Source: a virus
DNA length: 16,798 bases
Direction: 5' to 3' (one strand)
UHGV virus genome: UHGV-0140151
Below the pieces are notes generated by a model. That model had not been told where the DNA came from, did no database searches, and saw only the letters and a program-made list of their open reading frames with translations. Shown here piece by piece: positions 1 through 15,381 of this stretch. The stretch's first letter is position 1, and each line of letters begins with the position of its first letter. The position numbers and the translations under genes were made by a program.

Positions 1-41
1 CTGTCCTTCCCTGATTTTTTTTACCGCCTGCATGATGTCCA

Positions 42-749
42 TCACTCGCCTCCCCAACCGATTACCTGGAATTGTCCCATCCTTGGGTGATACCAGCGTT
101 TTCCTCGGTGTTCAGCCTCCGACATCATCAGGGTAAAGGCATTCATGAAGGGAGATAAGGCCACAATAGTACGACGCGACAATACCCCCTCTGGCGTCAA
201 AAACTCATGCGTATCAGTGGGTATCCGGTAAGCGTTGACCAGGTTACGGCATTTGGCTTCAGTCAGGCCGCATTTCGCCGCTAACTGGCGGTAGCCAATG
301 TAGCCTTCTGGTATGTTGCCTTTCTTGATCTGCTCGACGGTTTCAGCGACCTGGCTAACCTTTGACTCAACAGCATGAAGCCGCTTTTGCTGCTGAACTG
401 CATTCGCAGCCATTGCAGCGATCATCTCTATTTCGGTCAACGGCTGGCGTACTTGTTCTTCCAGTTCGCGCCAGCGGTCCACCAGCCGGGCGGTGAATTC
501 GGGAGAGAGCTGCGCAACGACAATGATACTGTCACGTTTGCCTTGCTCGCCTTCAAAGACGTAGTGTGAATTTTTAACTTTAAATCCTAAGTTATTGATA
601 TTTTCGGAAACCTCCATTGGAGGAAGTGGAATAACACCTGATTTACTCAAGCGTTCAATAGTGCGTTTAACGTTATCCGGGCGACTTCCCACCAGCTCCG
701 CGATCTCAATGCTGGTCATTGATGGCTTTTCAAGAATGCAGATATCCAT
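42..749 (-). CDS. Rha-family phage regulatory protein / antirepressor-like
   Basis: 235-aa ORF. N-terminal segment (TSIEIAELVGSRPDNVKRTIERL) resembles the Phage_pRha DNA-binding domain. GAGG Shine-Dalgarno 7 nt upstream of ATG at 749; start overlaps the stop of the upstream small ORF (TGATG). Confidence 0.6.
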   Translation of the reverse strand: MDICILEKPSMTSIEIAELVGSRPDNVKRTIERLSKSGVIPLPPMEVSENINNLGFKVKNSHYVFEGEQGKRDSIIVVAQLSPEFTARLVDRWRELEEQVRQPLTEIEMIAAMAANAVQQQKRLHAVESKVSQVAETVEQIKKGNIPEGYIGYRQLAAKCGLTEAKCRNLVNAYRIPTDTHEFLTPEGVLSRRTIVALSPFMNAFTLMMSEAEHRGKRWYHPRMGQFQVIGWGGE

Positions 750-973
750 CAGTGTGCCTCCGCAATTCCGGGATTGGTAATATTGCGATACCAGGGATTA
801 GTGTTTGGTTGTGGGGAAGTAGAGAAACGACCAGTAAGAACACCATACTGATCAGGGATCAGAGAACGGGCTTCTTTTTCGGTTGCGGCAATTGCGAAGT
901 GATCGCAATGTTTTTGCAGGGAGTGGAAACGCCAGATGAATTCTGGACGTGAGCAAGGATTGGCATTAACCAT
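749..973 (-). CDS. hypothetical small phage protein
   Basis: 74-aa ORF whose stop overlaps the start of the Rha-like gene by 1 nt (translational coupling); GAGG about 9 nt upstream of ATG at 973. No recognisable domain. Confidence 0.35.
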   Translation of the reverse strand: MVNANPCSRPEFIWRFHSLQKHCDHFAIAATEKEARSLIPDQYGVLTGRFSTSPQPNTNPWYRNITNPGIAEAH

Positions 974-1388
974 AGTTACGGCCTCACAATCAGGTTTAAC
1001 AACCTGCTACCCGCTGTCAAACAGGTGGCAGGACGTGACAGGGTTGACAGACTGGCGATTGTGAAACCAGCAGGCCGAAGCCTCCCCATCACGCCCCACC
1101 ATAATTTGGGCGTAACGCGGTTTAACGGACACAAAAATACCGCAATATCGGAAATCTGCGGTTGTCCGCACAATCATTCAGGCTGTCAAACCTGGTCGCA
1201 GAATTTGCTACGACGGCATGAATATAAGCCTGAACATTAGAAAGATCAACAGAATTTTTATCAGATGCTGTTTTTTGTGACGATGTAGATCATACATTCC
1301 CGATTAGAAACATCAATTTAATTTTCTAACACATAATTACGAGCGATGATTTTTCCGCCGCACAGTTATTGTACAGTCAATCGCAACA

Positions 1389-2348
1389 TCATCCCCGAAA
1401 GCCCTCCGGAATTGACCAGTCTTCCCGGTCAAATTCAGACCGATAGCCACGCTGTTTCATCAGGTCAAATGCTTCATTGATGGTTGCACATCCCTGGGAA
1501 CCAGAATAATCCATAGAGAAATCCAGGGCGCTGGATCGTTTGGGCTTATTCACCGTGGTAGCACTACGTATCCATGCAAATTTTTTTGCCAGTTTTTCAG
1601 CGGTACGATACAGAGCCTGCCGTTTTGCATACCCCTCGTCTGAACGACGCTTTGCAGCTCTCGCTTTTGCCGCCGCCAAACAGTGGTTGGTATGTTCTTC
1701 CCTGATTACTGTTTTTTTATCCAGCAAGCCATTATCCGCTTGAGAACTATCTGCTGGTGAAGCCTTTGGCTGAACCGCGCATGATCTTTCTCTTCTTTTG
1801 GCTATAGAGTGACTCTTATTTTCTATTGGCTGTTCATTTTGAACATGGGGGGGCTTGTTCAATTTGAACAGGGGGTGCCCAGTTTCAAAAAAATGACGAA
1901 CCTTTGAAATCAACTGCTTAACCAGTTTTGTGGCGTTGGCAAATTTGATGCCCTGCTTACTCCCTATCTCCATTGCTACATGAATGAAGTGGAGAAATTG
2001 TGTTGTAAACCGGTACACGTTACACACCTGAGCATTGTTATTCGCTACCTGATGCTGCTTAACAAGCATTCCGCACTTCGTCGCTTCAGTAAATGCCCGG
2101 CGCACAGTAGAAATACTGCGTCCTGTAATCTCGGACATATCAGCATATGAGCGACGGATCATGTATTCATCGGTAGCTCCTGCCAGGTTGGCGAACTCGG
2201 CAATAATGGCGCTATGTGAAGGGGAAAGAAAACCGCTATGACGAGCAAAAAAACTCAACTGATGACCTTTGATTTTTTTGTGGTATTCAGTGTTGTTTTT
2301 ATACTCAGAAGTGTTGAAAGTCACTGAAACTGAATTTAAAATACTCAC
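1389..2348 (-). CDS. hypothetical DNA-binding protein (helix-turn-helix-like segment, basic C-terminal half)
   Basis: 319-aa ORF with apparent GTG start. HTH-like stretch (MSEITGRSISTVRRAFTEATKCGMLV) and lysine/arginine-rich region. Function not recognised; a replication-initiator or regulator role is speculative. Confidence 0.5.
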   Translation of the reverse strand: MSILNSVSVTFNTSEYKNNTEYHKKIKGHQLSFFARHSGFLSPSHSAIIAEFANLAGATDEYMIRRSYADMSEITGRSISTVRRAFTEATKCGMLVKQHQVANNNAQVCNVYRFTTQFLHFIHVAMEIGSKQGIKFANATKLVKQLISKVRHFFETGHPLFKLNKPPHVQNEQPIENKSHSIAKRRERSCAVQPKASPADSSQADNGLLDKKTVIREEHTNHCLAAAKARAAKRRSDEGYAKRQALYRTAEKLAKKFAWIRSATTVNKPKRSSALDFSMDYSGSQGCATINEAFDLMKQRGYRSEFDREDWSIPEGFRG

Positions 2349-2410
2349 CAGATAGTACCGTGAAAAATCTATCTACCGTATAAATCTATGTCCGGAGATT
2401 TATACACCCA

Positions 2411-2441
2411 AAAGCCGCTTCTCAGCGGCTTTTGCTTTTTT
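2411..2441. terminator. putative intrinsic terminator (possibly bidirectional)
   Basis: Stem aaagccgc / gcggcttt with a 6-nt loop, followed by ttgctttttt on the plus strand and by a 4-U run on the minus strand. Lies between two minus-strand genes. Confidence 0.4.
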
Positions 2442-2546
2442 GGCAGTCGCTACCGGAGCAGTGACCGCGATCCTACTCGATCACGTGCTGCCGGATCAAC
2501 AGTGTATAAAAACACACTGTGTTAGAAAATTAAGCTAGAGTTTTAA

Positions 2547-3545
2547 TCACATCCTCTTAGACACAAAGAACAGCGGAGTCACCGTCTTGTTCTCTTTGAC
2601 CGGTATTTCTTGTTGTTTATTGGCTGATATTGGCAGACCATAAGTGGCATTAGCCCCCAGGGATTCAAGCATCGCTGCGACAATGCGGGCATCATCCTCT
2701 GACTGCATACGGCAGAGCGCCCGGCGCTGTTCTGCGCTGATAAAAACAGGCATTTCCTGGATAGCATCACGCAAAATACGGCGGCATTTCTTCGCGTTCT
2801 CCCCCTGGCTTTCCATCATCGCGGCCTGGTCGCGTAGTTTGTCGCGAAGCTGCATATTTTCCACTTCAAGATGTATCAGTTCCGACTCCAGAACTTCACG
2901 TTGTGCTGATTCGAGTATGGCTTGCTGACTCCTCATTGCTGAAAAGTGGTGAACCAGATCCGTAGCAGCATTATCGGTAAAACCTTGTTCGATAAGTGCC
3001 GCATGAATCGCCGCGTCGCGTTCTTCTGCTGATTCAAGCATCAGGCTTTTCTTGTCGAGGCTGATATAGTTAGGCACAGTTACGTAATCAAAACCGTGAA
3101 AAGACTTTACCAGGGATACAGAGTAATCTGGACCAGATGTAGCCCATGACCAACCGCCTGCGCCAGAATTAATCATACCCTGAACAATACGTCCGGTGTC
3201 CGTATCCAGTATTTCCTGTGTATGGGTAACAATGCCGTTGTCGTCAATTGAAATATCAATAGTCCTGTTTGACGGCACGTTCTCCAATACAACAGGCTTC
3301 CCATCTACCATCACAACAGAGACTTCCGGCAAGTCCAGGCTTTTCGTTTTGTTATAGTGCATCGCCCGGCGACCATGACCGTAATAACCATACATCTCAC
3401 CCAGCGCGATACGCTCTTTTGTTTCTGGCGAGTTGAATGTGTCTCGTACCGACTGGATAACGTAATTGCGATTGTTCTGAGGTGTGTGTTTGCGGATTTT
3501 CTCTACCAGGGAGAAGCGATCCGTAACGGTATTCAGTGATTGCAT
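2547..3545 (-). CDS. putative prohead protease / scaffold-like head morphogenesis protein
   Basis: 332-aa ORF directly downstream of the putative portal gene, with GGAGGG Shine-Dalgarno and a 13-bp gap. N-terminal globular part followed by a long charged coiled-coil-like C-terminal region, an architecture typical of protease-scaffold proteins. Inferred from gene order; not verified. Confidence 0.4.
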   Translation of the reverse strand: MQSLNTVTDRFSLVEKIRKHTPQNNRNYVIQSVRDTFNSPETKERIALGEMYGYYGHGRRAMHYNKTKSLDLPEVSVVMVDGKPVVLENVPSNRTIDISIDDNGIVTHTQEILDTDTGRIVQGMINSGAGGWSWATSGPDYSVSLVKSFHGFDYVTVPNYISLDKKSLMLESAEERDAAIHAALIEQGFTDNAATDLVHHFSAMRSQQAILESAQREVLESELIHLEVENMQLRDKLRDQAAMMESQGENAKKCRRILRDAIQEMPVFISAEQRRALCRMQSEDDARIVAAMLESLGANATYGLPISANKQQEIPVKENKTVTPLFFVSKRM

Positions 3546-3558
3546 TATTTCCCTCCGG

Positions 3559-5244
3559 TTAATTATTGCTCATCACAAATTTTGCAAAGTTGATTAATTG
3601 TTCTTGCGTCCAGTTTTCCGGATCGTCACCGGACGACAACGGCGCGGATTCGTACATACCATGCTCGTTGTTTTGCTCTGATTCATTCGCCTTAAACTCT
3701 TTGATCATTGTGTTGAGAGTGTCATCGTCGATACGAAGCTGTTCGTTGAACAGATAACGCATAAACGCGTCGCTACCCGCCAGTTTCGGGTTGTTCTGGA
3801 TCTGGTCCATTATTTGCGAGATGACAGCTACGAAGTTGGCGCGCGCATCCAGCTCTCGGTTTTCCTCTTCCTGGATAGCTGTGTTCATTGAGTTGAATTG
3901 CACGTCATAAGGACGGTTTTTTTCGGTGTAAACCTTCCCGTATTTATAAGCGAGGTGAATGTCATGAAGCCGATAAATAGTCCGCTGGGCGGCCTGTCTG
4001 ATCCAGTTCGCGCGTAATGCGGCCTGGATAGCTGTTTGCTGCCAACCGCCTTCTCCAAGTCCACCACTCATCTGATCAGCCCAGCCAAGCATTGTTGCGT
4101 CAATACCGAGGCTTGCCGCGAGCTGTCGGAGATGAAACATAACGTCTTCGATACCACTGATATCTGCGGGTATAGATTGCGTATCAATGGTGATCCCGTT
4201 CTTCCCATCCCCCATGACAGGTATCAGATGGTTAAGTACAGACGGGAGAGCATTAGAATTAATCGACCGTTGCGCTACGAGGTCGCTATGACGCTTCAGT
4301 GCCTGGCTGACCCCGCGCGTATAATTCGCCGCGTTTACCGGATCTATCGTGTTCGTTGTGAGTGCAATCAGGCGATCAATTTTTGCAGCGTTGTTTCGCG
4401 TTGCTTTCAGCGCAGCAAGCGCGGCACATAAATTCAGGTAGGGTTCATAACTGTATTCAAGAAACGACGTACCGTAGTTCTGCGTCTCCATTAACGGCTT
4501 GTCCTGCTGTTCACTAAGCAAGGAATAGCCTTTAGTGCCGTAAGTTACTGGCATTACTTTATGCTGAGGCGTCCAGTACGGGTTTTTCATGGAAACCAGA
4601 TTCCACGGTTCGGTTATAACCCTGCGCAAAGTATGCGTATCCAGAATGTAATCACCGCTGAATCCGACAAGTTGGCTGCCGCGATAAAACTCCTGAACGA
4701 AATGAGGGAGCGTGTAATAGCTCGACTCAATTCCAGTTATCCCCTTCCCTTGCTCTGCATATGGACGGATATACGACACACCGAAAATAGCCATGATCAT
4801 GGCCCACGATGGCAGGCCATCATTAATCATTGAGCTTAAATCAGCGGTCAATTCCTCACATCGACTTACAGCCTCCTTATCCGCCCCATTTTTCGGAGCG
4901 AGAATAAATGCGAGGCCTGTTTTTTTTGATGGAGCCAGAGAATGCGCAATGTGAATGTTTAATGCTGTGGAGATTGTCGGGCTTTTCGCCATCGTCTCCA
5001 GTATGTTGTATTTTTGCAGGCGGTCACTCGGTAATTCTGCCGATATAGATACTGTATCCGCCGCGCTTGTCATGCCATCGCTATTGCTCCCCAGGATGCC
5101 AGGACGCAAGGCGGACAGGCCAGAACGAGCAACGACGCTATGCCCGCTCGTAAATACGACCGGATCGGCAGGCGTAACATCACCACCGCTGAAGGCTTTC
5201 TTCAATGCCGACAGAAAGCCCTTGTTTTTGTCTTTCGTTGCCAT
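3559..5244 (-). CDS. putative phage portal protein (or other large head protein)
   Basis: 561-aa ORF first in a tightly packed minus-strand pair; size and position consistent with a portal protein. Assignment is by context only. Confidence 0.4.
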   Translation of the reverse strand: MATKDKNKGFLSALKKAFSGGDVTPADPVVFTSGHSVVARSGLSALRPGILGSNSDGMTSAADTVSISAELPSDRLQKYNILETMAKSPTISTALNIHIAHSLAPSKKTGLAFILAPKNGADKEAVSRCEELTADLSSMINDGLPSWAMIMAIFGVSYIRPYAEQGKGITGIESSYYTLPHFVQEFYRGSQLVGFSGDYILDTHTLRRVITEPWNLVSMKNPYWTPQHKVMPVTYGTKGYSLLSEQQDKPLMETQNYGTSFLEYSYEPYLNLCAALAALKATRNNAAKIDRLIALTTNTIDPVNAANYTRGVSQALKRHSDLVAQRSINSNALPSVLNHLIPVMGDGKNGITIDTQSIPADISGIEDVMFHLRQLAASLGIDATMLGWADQMSGGLGEGGWQQTAIQAALRANWIRQAAQRTIYRLHDIHLAYKYGKVYTEKNRPYDVQFNSMNTAIQEEENRELDARANFVAVISQIMDQIQNNPKLAGSDAFMRYLFNEQLRIDDDTLNTMIKEFKANESEQNNEHGMYESAPLSSGDDPENWTQEQLINFAKFVMSNN

Positions 5245-5476
5245 GATTCACCGCAAAAGGTTTCCGATTTCGTGGCAGCTTATCCAGTGTGTGATTTCAT
5301 CAGTAATTTTTCGTTGTTTTCACCATATGCTGATGTTTTTTCATATGCGGAAATGCTTTTCCAAAAACGCAACAACCAAACAAAAAAGTCATGTTTATAA
5401 ACATTTTTGTTGTGTTTTATATCTTTTGTGTTACCATTCTTGCCGCCCATGATGGATAAATTGCATAAGGAAACTT

Positions 5477-5659
5477 GTGAAGTATTCAGAGTTCAAACGC
5501 TGGTTAATCCAGCAAGGGGCAGAGTTCAGGAAAGCGCCTGGTGGCGGCAGTCATCAGAAAGTGAACCTGAACGGAAAGCGGTCGGTTTTCCCGGACCACG
5601 GTTCAAAGGAAATGCCTGAACCGCTACGCAAGAAAATAATGAAGGACCTGGGGCTTTAA
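5477..5659 (+). CDS. hicA: HicA-family mRNA interferase toxin
   Basis: 60-aa ORF with GTG start preceded by AAGGA. Sequence (GSHQK...GKRSVFPDHGSKEMPEPLRKKIMKDLGL) recalls E. coli HicA; immediately followed by hicB. Confidence 0.85.
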   Translation: MKYSEFKRWLIQQGAEFRKAPGGGSHQKVNLNGKRSVFPDHGSKEMPEPLRKKIMKDLGL

Positions 5660-5689
5660 GCCCCAGCCTTTTTCACTAGGAGCTTCTCT

Positions 5690-6121
5690 ATGTTTAACTA
5701 TCCGGTAAAACTGGAGCGCGACGACAAAACCGGCGCGTATGTCGTATCATGCCGCGACCTACCATTGTTTAATTCCGTGGGTGACTCAGTTGAAGAAGCG
5801 TTGCTTGAGGCTGGTTATGGATTGGTCGCAGCGGTTGCGATTGAGATTGAAGAACGCCGACCTGTTCCCACTGGTAGCGAGCCAAAAGAAGGTGAGTACG
5901 TTGTCTCTTTGCCAGTGCTACCAGCAATGAAGGCTGCACTCCACAACGCGATGATAGAAACCGGCACACGCAAAGCAGAGTTGGCGCGCAAACTCGGCAA
6001 AAATGGAACACAGATTGATCGGCTTCTCGACGTCGAACATTCATCGAAAGTTGAAACTGTCGAGCTGGCACTGCATCAACTGAATAAAAATATCGCCGTA
6101 TCTGTCACACCAATGCGGTGA
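5690..6121 (+). CDS. hicB: HicB-family antitoxin
   Basis: 143-aa ORF with AGGAG Shine-Dalgarno. HicB-like N-terminal domain and C-terminal HTH (RKAELARKLGKNGTQIDRLL). Its stop codon TGA (6119..6121) lies inside the IS-end-like repeat copy. Confidence 0.85.
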   Translation: MFNYPVKLERDDKTGAYVVSCRDLPLFNSVGDSVEEALLEAGYGLVAAVAIEIEERRPVPTGSEPKEGEYVVSLPVLPAMKAALHNAMIETGTRKAELARKLGKNGTQIDRLLDVEHSSKVETVELALHQLNKNIAVSVTPMR

Positions 6122-6147
6122 CTGCTCCCCGCCCTGGCTGGGCGAGG
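6118..6147 (+). repeat. solo copy of the IS200/IS605-type subterminal hairpin (gtgactgctccccgccctg...ggcgagg)
   Basis: 19-nt exact match to 7717..7735 (the end of the tnpB element), followed by the same imperfect palindrome ccccgccc-N-gggcgagg. Confidence 0.55.
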
Positions 6148-6293
6148 ATTTACGGGGTATTTGTTAAAAACGCTCTATTCAAAGAAGAAATACCGAATCC
6201 CCCGGAGGTTATCCGGGGTGTCCGGTCGCCAGGTCAGGTTTCCAGCCCAAAATCGCTTTGTTCTGTTTTGGCTTCGAACATCGTGAAGTTAAG

Positions 6294-6310
6294 CCCTCCC
6301 TCCCCCCCCC
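6294..6310. repeat. homopolymeric C tract (ccctccct + 9 C)
   Basis: Directly visible: ccctccctccccccccc. Lies about 85 bp upstream of the putative -35 of the cargo operon. Confidence 0.9.
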
Positions 6311-6391
6311 ATTTTTACAGGATAAATATCAACCGAATTTATCTCATCGACATCTCTAATCGAAATCAGTGCTACGCCCAGTTTACTAAAC

Positions 6392-6419
6392 TTGCAGTTT
6401 AATAAAAAATTAGTATCAT
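6392..6419 (+). promoter_or_regulatory. candidate sigma70-type promoter for the XRE / 252-aa operon
   Basis: TTGCAG (6392..6397), 16-nt AT-rich spacer, TATCAT (6414..6419); GGAGGG Shine-Dalgarno at 6430..6435 precedes ATG 6441. The -35 match is weak. Confidence 0.3.
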
Positions 6420-6440
6420 GGTGGATATCGGAGGGTGGTG

Positions 6441-6896
6441 ATGAAAACATCTTATTTGACAATTTTAGCATTTCATATTCGAGACCTTCGCGAGGAGAAA
6501 GGAATCACCCAATTAGACATAGCGAACAAGCTAGGTATGACAAGTGCTGGTTGGGGGAAAATTGAAAATGGCAAATCGGCTCTCTCAGTAGAGAATATGT
6601 TAAAATTTTGCAAGATTATGGATATAGATCCATGCGTCCTACTTAACATATCTACAGAGTCCGCACGGATGTTAATTGAAAAAGGCTGGGTAGTATCTTA
6701 TTCACCTGTTGAGCGTGATAATCTTATAGATGGGAAAAATATATATACCAAGCTACATACAATGAATAATATTATGAGGAAATTTGTTGGTGAGCATTTG
6801 GAGGAAATATTAACAAGAGAATATAAAGACAGCATAACAAAATGCTCAACAATTTATATGGTTATTGTCAATAAGTTAGGTGTAAACATTATTTAA
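6441..6896 (+). CDS. XRE-family helix-turn-helix protein with a C-terminal domain of unknown function
   Basis: The ORF track starts at GTG 6435; ATG 6441 is preferred because of the Shine-Dalgarno spacing. HTH motif (ITQLDIANKLGMTSAGWGKIENGKSALSVENMLKFCKIMDID). AT-rich codon usage unlike the flanking genes. Confidence 0.75.
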   Translation: MKTSYLTILAFHIRDLREEKGITQLDIANKLGMTSAGWGKIENGKSALSVENMLKFCKIMDIDPCVLLNISTESARMLIEKGWVVSYSPVERDNLIDGKNIYTKLHTMNNIMRKFVGEHLEEILTREYKDSITKCSTIYMVIVNKLGVNII

Positions 6897-6913
6897 GCAA
6901 GTGGAGTGTGGAT

Positions 6914-7666
6914 ATGGCTTATCGCGCAGATAGAGATTTAACATTTTTATCGCAGTGCAGCGATTGTGATCTTGATGATCTGGTCAATCTGTTGATTTAT
7001 GACAACGATGGAAAAAAACGCTGGACTGAAGAGTTATCAAACAACCCACTATATAAGCAATTTAGACCTCAACATAGCTTATACTGGCGTGAAATTGCAG
7101 CCGAAATCCAATGCTATGGTGGAAATACATTTGCAACATTGTTGCGTGGTGGAAAAGGAGTTTACTATAAAGAAATTCTTATTGATGTGTGTAAAAGGCT
7201 AAAAGTAAACTTTAATTCTGAAAGCGAAGTGGATGTGATTGAGAGAAATCTTCTTATGAAGATTTTAAGTGATGCTTTAGATAAAATGCCGCAGCAAGAC
7301 ATAAAAGAACTTGCTTTAGAGTTTGGTTTAGTAAACTTAAAAACATTCAATCGTGAAGCGATGCTGGCTGCAATACAATATATTTTTAATAGTGGCGGAT
7401 TTCGATCATATCAAATTACAGTTATGTTAGCCAATGTTATACTAAAGGCATTGATCGGTCGTGGTTTAACAATTGCAGCAAATGCGACTTTAGTTAGAAT
7501 AGTAAGCCTTTTAGCCGGTCCAATTGGATGGGCAATAACGGCCGCATGGACATTAGTTGACATTGGGGGCGCAGCTTATCGCGTTACAATACCTGCAGTG
7601 ATCCAACTAGCCGTTCTCAGAAGTAAAATAAACAATAATATAAAAGTTGATGACATTATTTTCTGA
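6914..7666 (+). CDS. hypothetical protein with a C-terminal glycine-rich hydrophobic (membrane-associating) region; possibly YaaW/UPF0174-like
   Basis: The ORF track starts at GTG 6908; ATG 6914 is preferred (GGAG 7 nt upstream). Sits 18 bp after the XRE gene. C-terminal segment GRGLTIAANATLVRIVSLLAGPIGWAITAAWTLVDIGGAAYRVTIPAVIQLAVL is hydrophobic and Gly/Ala-rich. Family resemblance is from memory only. Confidence 0.7.
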   Translation: MAYRADRDLTFLSQCSDCDLDDLVNLLIYDNDGKKRWTEELSNNPLYKQFRPQHSLYWREIAAEIQCYGGNTFATLLRGGKGVYYKEILIDVCKRLKVNFNSESEVDVIERNLLMKILSDALDKMPQQDIKELALEFGLVNLKTFNREAMLAAIQYIFNSGGFRSYQITVMLANVILKALIGRGLTIAANATLVRIVSLLAGPIGWAITAAWTLVDIGGAAYRVTIPAVIQLAVLRSKINNNIKVDDIIF

Positions 7667-7674
7667 TTAAAAAT

Positions 7675-7698
7675 GGGGCATTGCTGCCCCTTTCTTTC
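7675..7698 (+). terminator. intrinsic terminator of the cargo operon
   Basis: Stem ggggca / tgcccc with loop ttgc, followed by tttcttt; located 9 nt after the stop codon at 7666. Confidence 0.55.
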
Positions 7699-7700
7699 AC

Positions 7701-7900
7701 GCTGCATACCCGTTAGGTGACTGCTCCCCGCCCTGTCGGGCGAGGCTTCCCACTTCTCAGGCCGCAACCGTCTGTGTGACGGATTTACGCTGGCCTCCAT
7801 GGGCAGAAACGACGAGTCCCGCCGCTTGTAATTCCAGTATGCCCTTGCGTTTGATGTTGAGCGCCGCGTTGATATCGCGGTCATGTTCAACTCCACACTC
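7701..7900 (-). ncRNA. putative TnpB-associated omega RNA (reRNA) spanning the tnpB 3' end and right-end hairpin
   Basis: In characterised TnpB elements the guide RNA is made from the 3' end of tnpB plus the right end, with the guide read from flanking DNA. A strong hairpin is present at 7726..7745. Extent is inferred, not observed. Confidence 0.3.
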
Positions 7901-9045
7901 TGGACACTGCCAGATGCGCTTATGTAATGGCATCTCCGACATTTTGTGACCGCAGCAGTGGCAGGTTTTCGAACTGGCGAACCATTGATCCAGTTTCAAC
8001 AGATGCACACCTTTCTCTGCTGCTTTGTATTCCAGTTTTGTGATGAATCCAGACCATCCAGCATCGCCTATCGCACGAGCCAGATGGTGATTTTTCGTCA
8101 TATTTGCCGTTTTCAATGTCTCGACAATTACCGCTTGGTTTTCGTCAACAATTGCACGAGAGAGCTTGTGTTGAAAATCAGCACGGGCATTCGTCACCCG
8201 TTCATGTAAGGCCGCAAGACGGATTCTGGCCTTTTTACGGTTCGCGCTTCCCTTTTGTTTACGGGATAGCGCTTTTTGTTTGCGTCGCAGATTACGGCTG
8301 GCATTGATGAGATGGCGGGGATTCGCAATTTTTGCTCCGTCAGACCTGATGGCGTAGTGCTCAAGCCCCATATCCAGGCCAGTAACTGTTGATATCAACG
8401 TGGGTTTTGCCGGAGCTTCCAGACCATCATCGCAAAGTAGCGACGCATAATATTTACCCGTTTCTGAACGGGTGATAGTAATGCTTTTCAGCTTTCCATG
8501 AAGTTCACGATGAAGGCGTGCTTCTATCGGGGCCAGTTTGGGGATTTTGATGGCATTATCCAGCACCTTAATCCCGACACAGTGGTAGCTCGATTGTTTT
8601 CCGTGTTTACGTTTAAACGTCGGGAACTGCGCTTTCAGCTTCGGATTAAAAAAGTTGGAAAATGCCACATCAAGATTGATTACCGCCTGTTGCAATGCCA
8701 TTGAGTCAAATTCTTTGAGCCAGGCATATTTACGGGACTTTTTGGCCACAGACAACAACGGTTTCAGATCGTTACGCGGACTTAAATTTACTCCGTGTCT
8801 CTGGTAAGCGTGTTTTTTGATGTGAAGAGCTTTATTGTACGCAAAGCGTACCGCGCCGAACTGGGCATTGAGATACTTTGCCTGTTCCGGTGTTGGATAG
8901 ATGCGTACTTTTGTTGCTCTTAACATAGTCACTGCTCATTGGTACAGGTTTTTATGCTAACACCGTAATAATATTTTTAAAGCCCTATGGGCTTTTCCGC
9001 CTTTCCTCCCCGCCCGCATTGGGCGAGGGTTCTCGGCGGTTTTTC
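7717..9045 (-). mobile_element. IS200/IS605-family insertion sequence carrying tnpB only (no tnpA)
   Basis: TnpB ORF flanked by subterminal imperfect palindromes (7726..7745 and 9006..9028, both ctccccgccc-N-gggcgagg). The left boundary is set by the point where identity with the 6118 copy begins; the right boundary is approximate. Confidence 0.7.
7757..8932 (-). CDS. tnpB: TnpB (IS200/IS605 OrfB-family, RNA-guided nuclease-type transposase accessory protein)
   Basis: 391-aa ORF with N-terminal MTMLRATKVRIYPTPEQ, RuvC-like motifs (GLDMGLEHYA; EYKAAEKG) and a C-terminal zinc finger (CHCCGHK...CPECG). Confidence 0.9.
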   Translation of the reverse strand: MTMLRATKVRIYPTPEQAKYLNAQFGAVRFAYNKALHIKKHAYQRHGVNLSPRNDLKPLLSVAKKSRKYAWLKEFDSMALQQAVINLDVAFSNFFNPKLKAQFPTFKRKHGKQSSYHCVGIKVLDNAIKIPKLAPIEARLHRELHGKLKSITITRSETGKYYASLLCDDGLEAPAKPTLISTVTGLDMGLEHYAIRSDGAKIANPRHLINASRNLRRKQKALSRKQKGSANRKKARIRLAALHERVTNARADFQHKLSRAIVDENQAVIVETLKTANMTKNHHLARAIGDAGWSGFITKLEYKAAEKGVHLLKLDQWFASSKTCHCCGHKMSEMPLHKRIWQCPECGVEHDRDINAALNIKRKGILELQAAGLVVSAHGGQRKSVTQTVAA

Positions 9046-9398
9046 GCTGAAACCCAGTTTACGGTCTGTTCTTTGGCCTGGTCGAGTGTCAAAAATTCAC
9101 CAATATATTGAGATATGCCTCTCAAAGCATCGATGAACTCCATTTGTGATGATTTAGTAAATGCACCACTAAGGAAGTCAACAACAATTTTAGGCGTTTC
9201 TTGTGCCGCCGGTTGCACTTCCTCTTCTTGCTGTTGCGCTGGATTATTCGATGAACCAAGCCCCAGCTTCATCATCACTTCAACGATCCGCACGCCAATA
9301 GTGACACGTTGTACCGCAGTCGCGCTTTTTTGCGCTGACATCAGCTCAGACAGTTCTTTGCCTAAGCTAAGGCGCTCCGTTACTGATATTTTCACCAC
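8985..9398 (-). CDS. hypothetical phage protein whose 3' end is encoded by the IS left-end hairpin (chimeric or truncated)
   Basis: 137-aa ORF overlapping the upstream gene by 7 nt. Its last 16 codons (REPSPNAGGEERRKSP) and stop are encoded by 8985..9035, which lies within the IS end. Confidence 0.5.
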   Translation of the reverse strand: MVKISVTERLSLGKELSELMSAQKSATAVQRVTIGVRIVEVMMKLGLGSSNNPAQQQEEEVQPAAQETPKIVVDFLSGAFTKSSQMEFIDALRGISQYIGEFLTLDQAKEQTVNWVSAKNRREPSPNAGGEERRKSP

Positions 9399-11356
9399 AC
9401 GCCCCCTTGTTGTATCTCTGCCAAAATGTTGATCAGGTGATCGGCTGCCGCACCAACAAGTGACTCGTTCTCATCATATCGACCTGCGTTGATAAGAACA
9501 TTAGCTGCCTCCTGAATGCGATCAAACTCCGCTCTAATCACCGTCAAATCACGGGACGTAAACTGCAACGGCACGGATTTCAGATATTCCAGCGCACTGT
9601 CCGCCTCCTGATCAGCCTCACTAACGACTGGCCCATCTGAACCTGTATCAGACTCTTGGGGGGATTCAGGTTCAGACTCAGGTACTGGTTCTGGTACTGG
9701 TTCTGGTACTGCTTCCGGTGCCTGATCTAATGTCTGTTCAGCTTCGACTACTTCTGATTGATTCTGAAGCGCGTCATAGATATCCATTATAAAAAGGTTC
9801 TCCCCATCTCCAAGTGGATAAGCGACGTTAGGAAATGCTTTGCGGAAGAGGATTTTTATCTGCGCCTTAAAGGTTTTCAAGTCGCTTCCAAACAGATCAA
9901 CATAGCCATCAATATGGTTCGACATACTGGACGCAACCAATTCGCCTGCAATCTCTTTCAATTCATCGTCACCAGGGAGATATAGCAACTCGTACTGACT
10001 GACTTCTTCGTCTGTCAGTTTGCGGTCATACGTAATGATTCCGTGACGAGCATATTCGTAATACGGATCAGCCTGATCAGGACGGTCAAGTACAGCTTTA
10101 TTTCCTTCAGGAACCGCACCAACACCCGCTGGGCGAGATTGGAGCGCATAGCGATATTTACCAACCTCCAGGGGATCAGGATGTGATTCTGGTTGTGGTT
10201 CCTGTTCAGGCTGCTGCTGATCAGTTGGCTCAGGCTGGCCCGGCAACACATCCACTTTGTATTGATCAGCATTATGTTCACGATAGGCTTTAAGTAATTT
10301 GGTTGCAGCATCCGCTGAACTCCCACCTTTAACAGCACTGACATCAATACTGAAATTGCCTTCTGGTGCCTCAATCGTGACAAAGCTATCACTGCCTGAC
10401 GTGACATACTTAACTACAGCACCATTATCCAGCGTTGTTTGGCCTTCTGTAGCAAGATTATGTTTTATGTGTCGCAGTTGATCATTGAAGGCACGCTCTT
10501 TAGTTCCTTGGCTCTTAGCTGACAATAAATTATCGCGTTTAGCCTGCAATTCCGCGTTAAGGGCTTTTTGTACGTCTAATTTATTCTGCATATCATTGAG
10601 TGTTGAGCGTTTCTCTGCCAGCCCCCGCTGTGCGTCTTCAACCTGCTCAATCAGCACAGAACGTTCTTCTGCCAGCTTGTCGGCTTCATTGAGATACCCC
10701 TCAATATCAGCCTTCATTTTGTCCTGGCGCTCCTTTGCTTTTTTGAATTTTGCACTATTACGCTCAATGAGGTTAGAAAGCGCCTGGCATACCTGGCTCA
10801 GAGATACATCACGCCCACCGATTGGCGCAACAACATGCGTAACGTTTCTTTTGTTAAGAAGAAACTGAAACGCAACCAGCTCGTCATCCCCTTTAATTCT
10901 TGTGCCGTCTGCGGTTGGAGAATGGAAAATTATGCTTGTCGTTTGCCCATCGGTTAGAGGTATTTGTGCTGTTACAACAGGGATATTTGCAACCCGGCGC
11001 ACGCGCCCAATGATTGCCCCACCGATACTATTACGTCCGTCTTCATATTCTCCTGCCTCATCCGTACCCGCAGCAATGTCAGTGCCATTCAGGCCGCGAT
11101 TAAGCGCCCGGACGAATGCTCGCATTGTTTGCGCTAACCGCAATTTTGTTGTGGTTATAGCTTCGAACATTGCCTCATTGGTAGTTACCAAAATTTCGTT
11201 GCCCATATAGGCCAGCTCGATATCTTCCAGCGTCGCAGGCTCGATAAGTAAATCATCCTCGGTGATATCTTCCGCCACCCAACGATTAGGCGTATATCCA
11301 GTGAGCGTATCTGCAAAAGTGGACTGGATATTTATTCGAATAGGTTTCTTTATCAT
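9392..11356 (-). CDS. large acidic phage protein with coiled-coil and Pro/Glu-rich repeats (possibly a virion internal or Dar-like protein)
   Basis: 654-aa ORF whose start overlaps the upstream stop (ATGA). Contains PEPVPEPVPESEPE and PEQEPQPE low-complexity segments and a central coiled-coil. A DarA-like role is a guess from the operon context (holin-like gene upstream). Confidence 0.6.
   Translation of the reverse strand: MIKKPIRINIQSTFADTLTGYTPNRWVAEDITEDDLLIEPATLEDIELAYMGNEILVTTNEAMFEAITTTKLRLAQTMRAFVRALNRGLNGTDIAAGTDEAGEYEDGRNSIGGAIIGRVRRVANIPVVTAQIPLTDGQTTSIIFHSPTADGTRIKGDDELVAFQFLLNKRNVTHVVAPIGGRDVSLSQVCQALSNLIERNSAKFKKAKERQDKMKADIEGYLNEADKLAEERSVLIEQVEDAQRGLAEKRSTLNDMQNKLDVQKALNAELQAKRDNLLSAKSQGTKERAFNDQLRHIKHNLATEGQTTLDNGAVVKYVTSGSDSFVTIEAPEGNFSIDVSAVKGGSSADAATKLLKAYREHNADQYKVDVLPGQPEPTDQQQPEQEPQPESHPDPLEVGKYRYALQSRPAGVGAVPEGNKAVLDRPDQADPYYEYARHGIITYDRKLTDEEVSQYELLYLPGDDELKEIAGELVASSMSNHIDGYVDLFGSDLKTFKAQIKILFRKAFPNVAYPLGDGENLFIMDIYDALQNQSEVVEAEQTLDQAPEAVPEPVPEPVPESEPESPQESDTGSDGPVVSEADQEADSALEYLKSVPLQFTSRDLTVIRAEFDRIQEAANVLINAGRYDENESLVGAAADHLINILAEIQQGGVW
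9680..9715. repeat. three tandem 12-bp units (ggtactggttct) inside the 654-aa gene
   Basis: Directly visible; encodes in-frame PEPV repeats on the minus strand. Confidence 0.85.
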
Positions 11357-11970
11357 GCATCTTCCTCCAGGCGCGCTATTTCTTCTTTCAATACGCGAGT
11401 TTTCGCCAGTTCCTGCGCCATCTCGGTTCTAATGATTTCAGTTTCTCTTGTTGCGCGGTCTGAATTACCTTGCACCTGATTTAATTTTTCTTTGGCCCTT
11501 TCAATATCCTCGCGGATCGCATCGCGAGATTCCTTTGCCTCTGCTAGTTTCTGCGCATTGGACTTAACGCCTTTTATTTTCTTATTCCCATCATCAATAT
11601 CTTTCGCCGCACGAGCTAACTTACGCGCCAATGATTTCTGAAATGATGATGCGCCTTTATTAAATAAAGCAGCCAGTGATTGCCCTAAAGCCGTCAGCGT
11701 TTTAACAGGCTTGAAAGGAACAATTTTTCCGTTCAGTTTTACACCAGAAATATCACCAGTATCATTAACCTGAACGTCCATCGTCTGCTCATCGATTCCG
11801 ATAAGGGTAAACGTGCGCGTCATGATCCCGTCTTTCTTCCTGCCATTACTTGCAGGGATCACCCTCGCTATCTTGTAGCCTCCTTTACCGATTTCTTTGA
11901 CGAGTTTTGCCAGCCCCTTTTCGTTTAACTCATCATAATTAAGAAGAACATAATTAGACTTATTTGACAT
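11353..11970 (-). CDS. hypothetical coiled-coil phage protein
   Basis: ORF track gives 11353..11994; start at ATG 11970 is preferred (AGGAG 7 nt upstream). C-terminal half is strongly charged coiled-coil. Confidence 0.55.
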   Translation of the reverse strand: MSNKSNYVLLNYDELNEKGLAKLVKEIGKGGYKIARVIPASNGRKKDGIMTRTFTLIGIDEQTMDVQVNDTGDISGVKLNGKIVPFKPVKTLTALGQSLAALFNKGASSFQKSLARKLARAAKDIDDGNKKIKGVKSNAQKLAEAKESRDAIREDIERAKEKLNQVQGNSDRATRETEIIRTEMAQELAKTRVLKEEIARLEEDA

Positions 11971-12406
11971 TCCAGTCTCCTTCACACTTTTCAATCATAA
12001 ACTGGCGTTCTATGCAGTCATTGATAGGGAAAATGCGATAAAGCGGATTCAGGCGGCAATTACCGTTAGTCAATGTGACCTTTAGATCCCACTTCGCTGG
12101 CTCAAGATATTTCGTGTCGATGAGCAAATATTCTTCTCTCTCACCGCGTTTTGATGCGTCAACTGGTCTTGTTTTCCCCGAAATAACCACAGATGGATTT
12201 TTCAAGTCCTGCAACCAATATTCGATTTGTGCATTGCTTACCCAGCTTCGCTTAACGCGAAGCGACACAGGAAACGCTATAGCAGACTCTTTCACTACAG
12301 CTTCGCCAATGCTCAAAATATCAACGCTCTTGCGACGAAATAAGAAACGGTCAATAACGGCAACAAATGCCATGATAAAAATGAAATAATTTCCAAAGTC
12401 ACCCAT
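11960..12406 (-). CDS. hypothetical protein with an N-terminal transmembrane helix (antiholin- or spanin-like by position)
   Basis: 148-aa ORF with hydrophobic N-terminus (YFIFIMAFVAVIDRFLF); start overlaps the stop of the holin-like gene (TAATG). Confidence 0.5.
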   Translation of the reverse strand: MGDFGNYFIFIMAFVAVIDRFLFRRKSVDILSIGEAVVKESAIAFPVSLRVKRSWVSNAQIEYWLQDLKNPSVVISGKTRPVDASKRGEREEYLLIDTKYLEPAKWDLKVTLTNGNCRLNPLYRIFPINDCIERQFMIEKCEGDWNVK

Positions 12407-12732
12407 TACTTCTCTCCACCTTTTCCCCCACTCGCTATTACGCTTAAGAGATTCAAGACGTTACTAGCTCTGGACTTCAAGCCCTGTAAAATTTCACTTC
12501 CGTTGTTACTTGCAATCAGAACAACGCAGTAAATGATGCCTTCCGGCCATTCATAGCTATCAGCCACCCAAAACCCCGCAAGCCCGGCAGTTACCGCAGT
12601 AAACAATTCACTCGCGAGGTTGAGCAGTGACGCAGAAATGCGCCCGTCTCTAACTCCGAGAAGGAATACGCCGGTTCCACTCAGCAGGGATGTTATGACT
12701 GCTACAGCCAGATTTTCATAATCTGCAAACAT
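12406..12732 (-). CDS. putative holin (three predicted transmembrane segments, charged C-terminus)
   Basis: 108-aa ORF with GGAGG Shine-Dalgarno. Hydrophobic segments LAVAVITSLLSGTGVFLLGV, LLNLASELFTAVTAGLAGFWV and GIIYCVVLIASNN; C-terminal GGKGGEK. Confidence 0.55.
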   Translation of the reverse strand: MFADYENLAVAVITSLLSGTGVFLLGVRDGRISASLLNLASELFTAVTAGLAGFWVADSYEWPEGIIYCVVLIASNNGSEILQGLKSRASNVLNLLSVIASGGKGGEK

Positions 12733-13268: not shown

Positions 13269-13841
13269 TTACAACTCAGTTTGAGTTTGGCGCTTCTCTA
13301 CAGGGTGATAACGATAAATCGTCGATACACCGATATCGTAAATAATTGCCAACTGTTTCCTGCTGTAGCCATTTTCGATCAACCTCGCTATTTGCTCATG
13401 TTGTTCTTTTGTCAACTTCGGGCGACGTCCGCCAATGCGTCCCTGTTCGCGTGCAGCTGCCAGTCCGGCCAGGGTTCTCTCAACAATTAATTCACGTTCC
13501 ATTTCTGCCAAAGCCCCCATGACGTGAAAAAAGAAACGCCCCATGGGTGTTGAGGTGTCAATGCTGTCTGTCAGACTACGGAAATTAACACCTTTTTCCC
13601 GCAGCTCCTCAATAAGCGTGATCAGGTGTTTCATACTTCTGCCGAGCCTGTCCAGCTTCCAGACAACCAGCGTATCTCCTTCTGATAACGTTCTGAGCAG
13701 CTTTTTCAATCCTGGTCTGGCTGACTTTGTTCCGCTGATTTTATCTTCAAAAATTAGTTCACATCCTGCGCAGTTCAGTGCATTTCTTTGTAAATCTGTG
13801 TTTTGGTCATTTGTTGACACACGAATGTAGCCAATTTGCAT
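13269..13841 (-). CDS. serine DNA invertase (Gin/Cin/Pin/Hin/Min family)
   Basis: ORF track gives 13269..13850; ATG 13841 is preferred (GAGG 9 nt upstream), giving MQIGYIRVSTNDQNTDLQRNAL... Catalytic-serine motif (VSTNDQ), central WKLDRLGRS and C-terminal HTH are typical of Pin/Cin. Confidence 0.9.
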   Translation of the reverse strand: MQIGYIRVSTNDQNTDLQRNALNCAGCELIFEDKISGTKSARPGLKKLLRTLSEGDTLVVWKLDRLGRSMKHLITLIEELREKGVNFRSLTDSIDTSTPMGRFFFHVMGALAEMERELIVERTLAGLAAAREQGRIGGRRPKLTKEQHEQIARLIENGYSRKQLAIIYDIGVSTIYRYHPVEKRQTQTEL

Positions 13842-13894
13842 GAAAAACATCCTCTTGTTTAGTTAAAAATACATAGTTGGTATAGGTAGGGATT

Positions 13895-13920
13895 AAGACT
13901 AAAACGTTGGTTTGGGGGAA
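13895..13920 (+). other. putative invertase crossover site 1 (gix/hix-like)
   Basis: aagactaaaacgTTggtttgggggaa; core AAAACG-TT-GGTTT resembles hix/gix (AAAACC-AA-GGTTT). About 50 bp from the invertase start, at the 5' edge of cassette 1. Confidence 0.45.
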
Positions 13921-14373
13921 GGCTCAGCATTGCCCGTTGGCGTGCCCGTTCCGTGGCCCTTAGAAACACCACCAACGGGCTGGCTGAAATGCAATGGTGC
14001 AGCATTTTCTTCTGAAAAGTACCCAAAACTGGCAAAGGCTTACCCGACAAATAAATTGCCTGATTTACGCGGTGAATTTATTCGTGGCTGGGATGATGGG
14101 CGTGGTGTGGATGCCGGGCGACAATTATTATCTTCACAGGGGGATGCAATAAGAAATATTGAGGGGTTCGCAGATGGCGGGATCGGCATGTCTTTTGATG
14201 CAATCAGAGGGGCTTTTTATGATGCAGGAACACGATCTGCGAGAATGCCGAATAACACAACTGATATAGGCAAAACCGATGACCTTGGATTCGACGCCTC
14301 TCGTGTCGTGCCAACAGCTAATGAAAACCGTCCTCGTAATATTGCCTTTAATTATATCGTAAGGGCGGCATAA
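13912..14373 (+). CDS. tail-fibre C-terminal variable cassette 1 (promoterless, silent orientation)
   Basis: Collar-type motif (PVPWP...TGWLKCNGAAFS...YP..LAKAYPTNKLPDLRGEFIRGWDDGRG), unique middle, shared ending RPRNIAFNYIVRAA. No ATG; the frame is open upstream through the crossover site. Confidence 0.7.
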   Translation: MGEGSALPVGVPVPWPLETPPTGWLKCNGAAFSSEKYPKLAKAYPTNKLPDLRGEFIRGWDDGRGVDAGRQLLSSQGDAIRNIEGFADGGIGMSFDAIRGAFYDAGTRSARMPNNTTDIGKTDDLGFDASRVVPTANENRPRNIAFNYIVRAA

Positions 14374-14392
14374 AAACGTTGGTTTGGGGGAA
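14367..14392 (+). other. putative invertase crossover site 2
   Basis: ggcataaaaacgTTggtttgggggaa; same core as site 1; overlaps the stop of cassette 1. Confidence 0.45.
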
Positions 14393-14890
14393 GGCTCTGC
14401 GCTGCCCGTTGGTGTACCTGTTCCATGGCCATCAGCCACACCGCCAACGGGGTGGCTGAAATGTAACGGAGCAGCATTTTCTTCTGAAAAGTACCCAAAT
14501 CTGGCAAAGGTTTACCCCACCAATAAATTGCCGGATCTACGGGGCGAATTTATTCGTGGCTGGGATGACGGACGTGGTATGGATACGGGGAGGGCAATAT
14601 TATCCGCTCAGGGCGATGCCATACGTAATATCTATGGTGAGTTCAAGACTGTAAACACCGAAAATTATTCAATATGGGAATCAGTAGGCTCGTTTAAGGG
14701 GGCAGTAGTGCCTTTGAGCCCCTCAACGAACAATAGTTATTTCTCCTTAGTCAGAAGTATGGTGACAGAAAGAACAGATGGCGCTGTTTACCCAAAAGTG
14801 ATTGGCCTTGATGCTTCAAGAATTGTTCCAACTGCAAACGAAAACCGTCCTCGTAACATTGCGTTTAATTACATCGTAAGAGCCGCATGA
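14384..14890 (+). CDS. tail-fibre C-terminal variable cassette 2 (silent)
   Basis: Same conserved 5' collar-type segment and 3' RPRNIAFNYIVRAA as cassette 1, with a different middle (...EFKTVNTENYSIWESVGSFKG...). Confidence 0.7.
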   Translation: MGEGSALPVGVPVPWPSATPPTGWLKCNGAAFSSEKYPNLAKVYPTNKLPDLRGEFIRGWDDGRGMDTGRAILSAQGDAIRNIYGEFKTVNTENYSIWESVGSFKGAVVPLSPSTNNSYFSLVRSMVTERTDGAVYPKVIGLDASRIVPTANENRPRNIAFNYIVRAA

Positions 14891-14909
14891 AAACGTTGGT
14901 TTGGGGGAA
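14884..14909 (+). other. putative invertase crossover site 3
   Basis: cgcatgaaaacgTTggtttgggggaa; same core as sites 1 and 2. Confidence 0.45.
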
Positions 14910-15362: not shown

Positions 15363-15381
15363 AAACGTTGGTTTAGGGGAA
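15356..15381 (+). other. putative invertase crossover site 4
   Basis: gcatagaaacgTTggtttaggggaag; same central AAACGTTGGTTT. Confidence 0.4.

Follow-up and report, generated by a model that had tools for sequence, protein, structure and literature searches.

Between conserved core genes of P2/P4-like and other temperate phages, hotspots for morons and defence genes have been described. Here we analyse a candidate site of this kind in UHGV virus genome UHGV-0140151. The stretch under study, hereafter termed the window, comprises 16,798 bp, is an entire metagenome contig (ENA ERZ1749178 NODE_1168; 4.5x coverage) and belongs, as judged by alignment, to the D6 branch of P1-like phage-plasmids. 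The site lies between the portal gene prt and ddrA, the last gene of the late Dar/lysis operon, and carries a hicAB toxin-antitoxin cassette, an XRE-jukA cassette and an insertion sequence (IS) encoding TnpB. Very probably, this region is a cargo slot of D6-like phage-plasmids that extends from the end of the Dar/lysis operon to the late promoter of prt-pro and has received its three modules separately. In common with the P2/P4-like moron hotspots, the D6 slot has a fixed place between core operons, varies in content among elements, carries opposite-strand genes that have a promoter of their own and a deviant GC content, and harbours defence systems (Juk, Shedu). It differs from them in being only modestly occupied, with ddrB alone in about half of the cases, and in also holding ddrB, a counter-defence gene; that is, defence and anti-defence genes compete for one place.

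The closest described counterpart of the central module is the Juk system, which a 2026 review treats as established. Li et al. 2022 (bioRxiv 10.1101/2022.09.17.508391) tested 17 jukA operons and reported that, in P. aeruginosa, the Escherichia operon Jo6 ('jukA;HTH-XRE') protects specifically against PhiKZ-like jumbo phages. In their work, single-gene deletions in Jo6 revealed that JukA alone suffices and that XRE is dispensable under artificial expression, and JukA was seen in P. aeruginosa PAO1 to relocate to the infection site and to stop infection early, with the phage DNA remaining undegraded. The window carries a closely related cassette (6305-7668, plus strand; ~1.36 kb, 36% GC). It consists of a gene for an XRE-type helix-turn-helix (HTH) protein (6441-6896; alternative GTG starts 6435/6438; Pfam HTH_3) and of jukA (6914-7666; alternative GTG start 6908; 250/252 aa), whose product matches Pfam DUF3944 (PF13099, 1.4e-12), the Cbp3-like family Ubiq_cyt_C_chap (PF03981, 4.7e-12) and the PADLOC JukA model PDLC04113 (E = 5.6e-70, residues 1-244 of 252). 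As compared to the proteins of the tested Jo6 operon, 246 of 250 residues are identical in JukA and 146 of 152 in XRE (98% and 96%). Jo6 JukA (WP_121372120) is at the same time the JukA of the nearest plasmid relatives, L002 and L003, with which the published 369-nt stretch of the Jo6 construct agrees at 369/369 positions, versus 360/369 in the window. Hence, the 252-aa protein that an earlier note on this DNA had assigned to a candidate new module is JukA.

Jo6 and the window cassette have in common the two-gene order, XRE followed by JukA, and the DUF3944 plus Cbp3-like domain architecture. The window allele differs by four substitutions in JukA and six in XRE, and by its natural phage-plasmid context, in which the cassette replaces ddrB; this context is not mentioned in the sections of Li et al. 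2022 used here. No PADLOC match to JukB was obtained among the open reading frames (ORFs) of the island, and the neighbour of jukA is the XRE-HTH gene. The locus therefore represents the JukA-XRE variant rather than canonical JukAB, from which it differs by the absence of the JukB effector.

Comparison of the window segment by segment with eight relatives showed that the conserved backbone (GC content 46-48%) ends at about 5299 and restarts at about 7669. On the left side, the 55 nt upstream of prt (5245-5299, minus strand) are kept in all relatives whatever cargo they carry, and contain a motif, ACTGGATAAG, that recurs upstream of lydA; this segment probably acts as the late promoter of prt. 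On the right side follow a GC-rich hairpin (7675-7690), terminator-like on both strands, and the orphaned last five codons of ddrA with the stop codon (7699-7716, minus strand), which flank the IS right end (RE) and were recognized by comparison with the empty sites of L002 and L004. A related hairpin is present downstream of ddrA in relatives without the present cargo. The cargo is therefore framed by two late operons, with the terminator of one on its right and the promoter of the other on its left. The earlier note had described positions 5245 to 9045 as an opposite-strand island with promoters and a terminator of its own. Its gene layout, four plus-strand genes and a tnpB element, is borne out, and its right end lies 1 nt from the outer IS end at 9046. 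The four cargo genes are indeed on the plus strand, whereas tnpB (7757-8926) is on the minus strand like the backbone; the cargo lies within the given bounds, whereas their margins at 5245-5299 and 7669-7716 are backbone; and XRE-jukA does have a promoter/operator block kept across four genera, whereas the terminator at 7675-7690 is the backbone hairpin.

Three features had escaped the note, namely displacement of ddrB by the island, truncation of ddrA by the IS and a minus-strand ddrB remnant inside the island. As internal proteins of the phage head, Dar proteins are ejected and counteract type I restriction. Of the Dar set, the window has darA, hdf and ddrA, the latter with an altered C-terminus. 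The ddrB gene, which encodes a protein of either ~460 aa (short) or ~1013 aa (long) with a ddrB-ParB Pfam domain in the relatives, is reduced to 71 nt that comprise the last 23 codons and the stop codon (6234-6304, minus strand; tblastn with residues 438-461 of L004 DdrB, 96% identity). Positions 1-6315 are collinear with NZ_CP104667, where the gene order is prt, hicAB, ddrB and ddrA, and homology with L004 stops at about 6304. Since the end of ddrB is kept at 6234-6304 and the cassette then continues up to the backbone hairpin, XRE-jukA replaced ddrB in a hicAB-bearing ancestor; judged from these alignments, it took the place of ddrB codons 1-438 in an ancestor with the NZ_CP104667-type gene order. 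The 137-aa ORF at the other side (8985-9398, minus strand), listed in the earlier note as a gene in its own right, is a ddrA gene, yet not in its native form: the native 122-aa ORF contributes positions 9047-9398, and its last 5 codons are swapped for 20 codons plus stop provided by the IS left end (LE). Consequently, the protein ends with NWVSA-KNRREPSPNAGGEERRKSP in the window versus NWVSA-NGYAA in L002 and L004.

We considered whether the island might have been acquired as one block and rejected this scenario: hicAB occurs without Juk in L004 and L020, XRE-jukA occurs without hicAB at chromosomal loci and on an IncY plasmid, and the position of the IS differs among relatives. By these comparisons, the three modules were acquired in separate events. 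Mutual exclusion of JukA and ddrB was likewise rejected, as L003-type plasmids, found in five complete E. coli genomes, carry both. One preprint describes ddrB as 'missing' from most D6 sequences and complete defence systems as rare in D6-like elements.

At least nine layouts were found between ddrA and prt among D6-like relatives, which supports the variable moron or defence hotspot suggested in the earlier note. Most common is short ddrB by itself (e.g. L006). Other elements combine ddrB with orf23 and a DUF4145 gene (D6), with hicAB (L004, L020), with a 211-aa ORF (L041) or with an unrelated tnpB IS (L007). A long ddrB is accompanied either by a 97-aa gene, a small XRE gene and a 100-aa gene (L008) or by ssb, the Shedu gene sduA and a 100-aa gene (L040, L042). 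Finally, there are four Juk layouts with differently placed IS copies (window, L002, L003, L005). Thus, the comparison of cargo at the same site that the note had proposed reveals differing content and contradicts the presence of the same genes in most D6-like elements. Among 5,426 complete E. coli genomes, 99 carry a D6-like prt, always on a plasmid; hicAB is present in 15 and XRE-jukA in 5 of these 99. In IMG/VR, ~24 D6-clade loci with both flanks had ddrB only (13), long ddrB plus small genes (4), ssb plus Shedu (2) or, in one case each, the D6 type, hicAB plus ddrB, the Juk type and the 211-aa ORF. Judged by these counts, the site is a moderately used hotspot. Among the papers searched, none contained an earlier description of a prt-ddrA hotspot in D6-like elements.

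PADLOC recognized a further defence system at the site in L040 only (SduA, E = 5.3e-81); it had no match for orf23 and DUF4145 of D6, short and long DdrB, the small ORFs of L008 or the 211-aa ORF of L041. L040 and L042 are more distant D6-type elements (portal 77% identical), in which positions 4417-5886 of the ddrA-ddrB interval contain ssb and an opposite-strand pair made up of the 100-aa ORF and full-length Shedu SduA.

The XRE-jukA cassette also behaves as a self-contained unit outside of phage-plasmids. The family of its XRE protein is small (18 clusters) and enterobacterial. Homologues with ~50% identity are encoded in Enterobacter, Pectobacterium and Serratia chromosomes, always with a JukA of 250-254 aa 12-15 nt downstream, in unrelated surroundings and with no phage genes nearby. 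The upstream DNA cannot be aligned across Escherichia, Enterobacter, Pectobacterium and Serratia, apart from a single block that is invariant, AAACTTGCAGTTT-N-ATAAA-N5-AGTATCAT (6388-6419, plus strand), which provides a -35 element (TTGCAG, 6392-6397) overlain by the palindrome AAACT-TGC-AGTTT and a -10 element (TATCAT, 6414-6419). This is good evidence, obtained by comparison of sequences, for a promoter of its own with a putative operator. The N-terminal HTH domain of XRE, modelled confidently by AlphaFold, is nearest to the restriction-modification controller proteins C.BclI and C.AhdI, and XRE also matches the PADLOC model 'Control_protein'. From both observations we infer that XRE most likely autoregulates the operon, which agrees with its dispensability for immunity under artificial expression.

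JukA is almost absent from 50,697 GenBank phage records. Two further plasmid-borne occurrences were observed. The IncY P1-like plasmid NZ_LC511659 (5530-6753) has, in the place taken by res-mod in P1, an XRE-JukA cassette of 72% identity, beside lxc-ulx-darB and next to IS1 and Tn3. In NZ_CP044046 (4857-6469) and ~30 similar ~110-kb non-mobilizable Klebsiella plasmids, an ORF for a distant JukA-like protein (29% identical) is followed, with a 4-nt overlap, by a 315-aa ORF; the two could be another JukA-effector pair residing on a plasmid or phage-plasmid.

The IS is a tnpB-only element of the IS200/IS605 family (7717-9046, minus strand; 1330 bp; LE at 9046, RE at 7717) and is ISEc46-like, a name taken from the record of phage RCS47. 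Its ends were set by alignment with the unoccupied sites in L002 and L004. In agreement with the assignment in the earlier note, TnpB has the Pfam domains HTH_OrfB_IS605, OrfB_IS605 and Cas12f1-like_TNB, aligns over its full length with TnpB of ISDra2 (8BF8; residues 4-380, 4e-78) and retains the motifs GLDMG, VETL and HDRDINAA, which provide the RuvC D/E/D residues, as well as a CxxC...CxxC zinc finger. Read in its own orientation, the IS starts with CGAAAAACCGCCGAGAACCC immediately after TTCAG and ends with GCAGTCAC. Eight occupied junctions with seven distinct left flanks gave identical IS ends, all copies starting with C(A/G)AAAAACCGCCGAGAACCC and ending with GCAGTCAC. The pentanucleotide abutting LE (9047-9051, minus strand in the window) constitutes the target-adjacent motif (TAM) and reads TTCAG at five and ATCAG at two of the seven left flanks, with no target-site duplication. 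Beyond RE, the 16 nt at 7701-7716 (CTAACGGGTATGCAGC), preceded by TTCAG, correspond exactly to the site as it stands unoccupied in sibling plasmids (a 16/16 match in L004); by analogy with the established TnpB mechanism, they are the predicted guide of an omega-RNA. The element thus resembles tnpB-only IS200/IS605 elements and ISDra2 (PDB 8BF8/8EXA) in full-length TnpB homology, in insertion 3' of a pentanucleotide TAM without duplication, in its subterminal hairpins and in a tnpB 3' end that runs into RE, the expected place of the omega-RNA. It differs in its TAM (TTCAG/ATCAG versus TTGAT in ISDra2), in having no tnpA and in matching no curated omega-RNA family.

Copies of this IS family were found in several contexts. 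Within D6-like elements, they lie in ddrA of the window, in codon 4 of hicA (L002, L005), in the loop of the ddrB-ddrA hairpin (L003) and, in one further plasmid, between repL and icd; others reside in leading regions of IncF and IncI1 plasmids. The nearest copy (94.8% identity) is that in the repL-icd spacer (NZ_CP029365, 2501-3829); the family therefore moves repeatedly within the phage-plasmid group. In L003 (NZ_CP085065, 6311-9112), which has full ddrB as well as the Juk cassette, the left IS junction falls on the TTCAG within the loop of the D6-type ddrB-ddrA hairpin, and codon 5 of hicA forms the right junction. Since a D6-type left half (prt, ddrB, TTCAG, IS) is joined here to a right half composed of IS, truncated hicA, hicB and XRE-jukA, L003 is an IS-mediated recombinant. 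Judged from such junctions, IS copies are portable homology that reshuffles cargo between elements. Copies 88-90% identical are common in the leading regions of IncI1/IncF conjugative plasmids (L011; L012, i.e. ColIb-P9; L013), where they adjoin ardA/klcA-type anti-restriction genes, psiA/psiB and parB-like genes; the window copy likewise sits in an anti-restriction gene, ddrA. A bias of the IS toward single-stranded DNA or toward its TAM, and not a functional link, is the probable reason for this vicinity.

The hicAB cassette (5404-6121, plus strand) consists of hicA (5477-5659) and hicB (5690-6121), separated by a 30-nt gap, and of ~73 nt of upstream sequence. Its identity, named correctly in the earlier note, follows from Pfam (HicA_toxin PF07927, 1.3e-9; HicB-like_2 PF15970, 6e-13) and structure-database matches. 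Over all of its 60 aa, HicA can be aligned with its E. coli counterpart (6HPB_A, 1e-12), the GGSHQK motif standing opposite GSNHLK; the histidine of this motif is the catalytic residue of HicA toxins. HicB matches 6HPB_B/6U0I (2e-15) and covers residues 2-135 of E. coli HicB including the C-terminal HTH. The cassette thus resembles the type II toxin-antitoxin system HicAB of E. coli (PDB 6HPB) in the order hicA-hicB, the HicB-like N-terminal domain and the C-terminal HTH, and differs by its location on a phage-plasmid and by its kinship to cassettes of phages: the DNA of an otherwise unrelated Enterobacter phage is 86% identical to 5404-6117, and a further relative of the cassette is hicAB of Yersinia phage PY54. 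HicA and HicB are both 100% identical to the NZ_CP104667 proteins. Upstream of the cassette, a promoter scan and sequence comparison yielded a palindrome only and no verified promoter. A terminator-like hairpin (5648-5666; 8 bp followed by a T-run) spans the hicA stop codon at the hicA-hicB junction and might modulate the ratio of toxin to antitoxin transcript.

A ~46-nt sequence that overlaps the hicB stop codon (6118-6163, minus strand; GTGACTGCT-CCCCGCCC-TGGCT-GGGCGAGG-ATTTACGGGGTATTTG) looks like a fused LE/RE remnant, its direct repeats D1 and D2 matching both IS ends. It is present in L002-L005 and in all hicAB-carrying relatives, and may represent either a miniature derivative or the scar left behind by a former IS. 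Juk-carrying relatives were found among PLSDB plasmids (three), complete E. coli genomes (five), IMG/VR (L051) and ENA (L102). In every one of them other than the window, a 92%-identical IS copy breaks hicA at codon 4, and in L005 an IS-adjacent deletion took hicA together with the 5' part of hicB. Juk and intact hicA are thus combined only in the window layout, among the Juk relatives found.

The remaining part of the window is backbone, which is 87% identical to phage D6 and 95-98% identical to ~94-kb non-mobilizable plasmids of Escherichia marmotae and E. coli (megablast). To the left of the island, the minus strand encodes ant, icd, repL, pro and prt (3559-5244), the latter a 561-aa ORF annotated as 'portal protein / similar to P1 prt' in D6 and plasmid relatives. 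To the right lies the Dar/lysis late operon (9392-12732, minus strand), identified by Pfam and by D6 and P1 annotation, with darA (9392-11356; DarA_N/DarA_C), hdf (11353-11994), lydB (11960-12406; LydB) and lydA (12406-12732). The order lydA-lydB-hdf-darA-ddrA is common to P1 and the window, and the P1 region past ddrA/ddrB also contains an XRE homologue (hxr), an IS and accessory genes. P1 differs in that its prt-pro genes are located elsewhere, whereas prt-pro bounds the D6-like slot. P1 and its closer kin show other synteny, and they too have a variable stretch after ddrB (hxr, isaB, IS1 and isaA in P1; 3.4-8.3 kb in IMG/VR relatives). A search of the whole window against Rfam at gathering threshold returned only C4 RNA and its a1/b1 targets. 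The C4 antisense RNA (68 bits) and the a1/b1 target sites (54 bits) map to 1021-1106 and 1175-1227 on the minus strand and are part of a P1-type immI region (c4-icd-ant), upstream of icd (749-973) and ant (42-749). Beyond the lysis genes, a cin-like invertase gene (13269-13850, minus strand) is inverted relative to D6; it is only 70-74% identical to cin of D6 and L002, as compared to ~78% for invertases of P2-like prophages. Next to it, the tail-fibre segment (13900-16798) matches several unrelated phages at 83-92% and represents a second mosaic region.

On this basis, the following scenario can be proposed. In the plasmid-prophage state, the flanking late operons would presumably be silent, and the plus-strand cargo would be transcribed from its own promoters toward the backbone hairpin. 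XRE, acting at a palindromic operator that overlaps the sigma-70 promoter, would hold jukA expression at a set level. By analogy with the tested Juk proteins, JukA may serve as sensor and executor that guards the lysogen against nucleus-forming jumbo phages, relocating to the entry site and arresting infection early. HicA would act as an mRNA interferase neutralized by HicB, most likely in the service of plasmid-prophage stabilization or abortive infection. The IS, which inserted 3' of TTCAG in the last ddrA codons, would be a selfish passenger, with tnpB being transcribed together with, or by read-through from, the late Dar operon. TnpB loaded with the RE-derived guide RNA would recognize TTCAG followed by CTAACGGGTATGCAGC, that is the unoccupied ddrA end of siblings, as in canonical TnpB homing. 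For the phage, the costs would comprise the loss of ddrB and an altered DdrA tail.

A further role of TnpB has a slim chance of being correct in our estimation: the nuclease may be a phage-versus-phage device for homing or exclusion, which would cut rival IS-free genomes during lytic growth or co-infection and subsequently be copied into them or exclude them. The idea arises because the IS is on the same strand as, and directly downstream of, the late Dar operon, because the backbone terminator hairpin is only 10 nt past the predicted 16-nt guide, and because guide and TTCAG match exactly the intact ddrA 3' end of IS-free D6-like siblings. If so, the TnpB element would not be a passive passenger. 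Still more speculative is the thought that JukA is tuned to internal head proteins which competing phages eject, e.g. Dar proteins; the coexistence of ddrB and JukA in L003-type plasmids weakens it.

Several observations weigh against parts of the proposed scenario or limit its reach. Jo6 immunity was measured by Li et al. 2022 (10.1101/2022.09.17.508391) only in P. aeruginosa, with PhiKZ-like phages and a heterologous promoter, and these authors call the mechanism of JukA-only immunity unknown. A generic consensus scan for promoters and terminators gave no more matches in the window than in shuffled sequence, for which reason the XRE-jukA promoter call relies on phylogenetic footprinting. The C-terminal half of XRE (60 residues) was modelled with a predicted local distance difference test score (pLDDT) below 65, and XRE may have a role beyond regulation. 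As to the IS, only 120 nt separate the tnpB start from LE and 39 nt its stop codon from RE, and tnpA is not contained in the element, which is therefore non-autonomous and of unproven mobility. An omega-RNA was matched by Rfam neither in the whole window at gathering threshold nor in 7600-9150 under permissive settings (E <= 1), and the 260-nt right-end fold is only modestly more stable than shuffled sequences (z = -2.4). Lastly, most D6-clade elements have ddrB alone, and the slot is better described as sometimes occupied than as a dense defence island.

Other explanations of the locus have to be weighed against the cargo-slot reading. That the genes between prt and ddrA are conserved core content of the lineage might be read from the same four cargo genes, which recur at 97% identity in a handful of relatives (L002, L003, L005, L051 and L102). 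However, D6 itself and most relatives have other genes there, with XRE-jukA in 5 and hicAB in 15 of the 99 genomes, the cassette deviates in GC content, and it occurs in unrelated chromosomal contexts; the comparison has already refuted this explanation, and we give it practically no credence. Nor is there much to be said for the XRE/252-aa pair as an undescribed toxin-antitoxin or defence module. Standard annotation does offer only a 'helix-turn-helix regulator' and a 'DUF3944 protein', and without a JukB partner no complete Juk call is to be expected from defence-finder tools. The full-length match to the JukA hidden Markov model and the near-identity of both proteins to those of Jo6 refute it nonetheless, unless the few substitutions abolish function, which makes it extremely improbable. 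A third possibility is that XRE-JukA serves the phage-plasmid life cycle rather than defence, i.e. as an Hxr-like regulator together with a Cbp3-like chaperone for Dar or head proteins. This would fit the location of P1 hxr directly downstream of ddrB, the occurrence of XRE-JukA beside Dar genes in two phage-plasmid lineages and the chaperone-like Cbp3 domain of JukA. It is nevertheless highly doubtful, as the same cassette is found in chromosomes of Enterobacter, Pectobacterium and Serratia with no surrounding phage genes, is absent from ~95% of D6-like elements and has a sibling JukA that immunizes a heterologous host by itself.

The island might also be decaying junk in a degenerating plasmid prophage, with cargo that has no current function, as could be read from the ddrB remnant, the replaced ddrA C-terminus, the IS remnant at 6118-6163, the non-autonomous IS and the disruption of hicA by the same IS family in relatives. 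However, all five cargo ORFs are intact and of full length, catalytic and motif residues are kept, the XRE-jukA promoter block is invariant, the backbone genes of the window are intact and a sibling JukA with only 4 differences is functional; we therefore regard decay as unlikely. It could also be argued that the IS in ddrA and the intact hicA were brought together by chimeric assembly: the contig is metagenomic and of low coverage (4.5x), the exact layout was not found in PLSDB or complete E. coli genomes, and IS repeats can mislead assemblers. Yet both IS junctions are precise, abut the TAM and restore the uninterrupted empty site of relatives, and positions 6395-7772, which span jukA, the hairpin and the RE junction, recur with 100% identity in an independent Logan contig (SRR1761716). 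An assembly artefact is accordingly very hard to credit.

Taken together, every part of the island belongs to a known family, and for its central module, experiments on a near-identical copy have already been reported. New are the presence of Juk on a phage-plasmid in place of ddrB, the promoter/operator of the cassette, the TAM and ends of the IS and the reshuffling of cargo by IS copies. Current concepts remain unchanged and annotation is refined, in that 'DUF3944' here denotes JukA and the 137-aa ORF is a ddrA::IS fusion. TTCAG as TAM and both ends are now defined for a tnpB-only IS that is widespread in enterobacteria. The tested 'Escherichia' JukA-XRE system against jumbo phages rides naturally on a D6-like temperate phage-plasmid, which provides a concrete case of a prophage that gave up its own anti-restriction gene, ddrB, for defence of its host against other phages.

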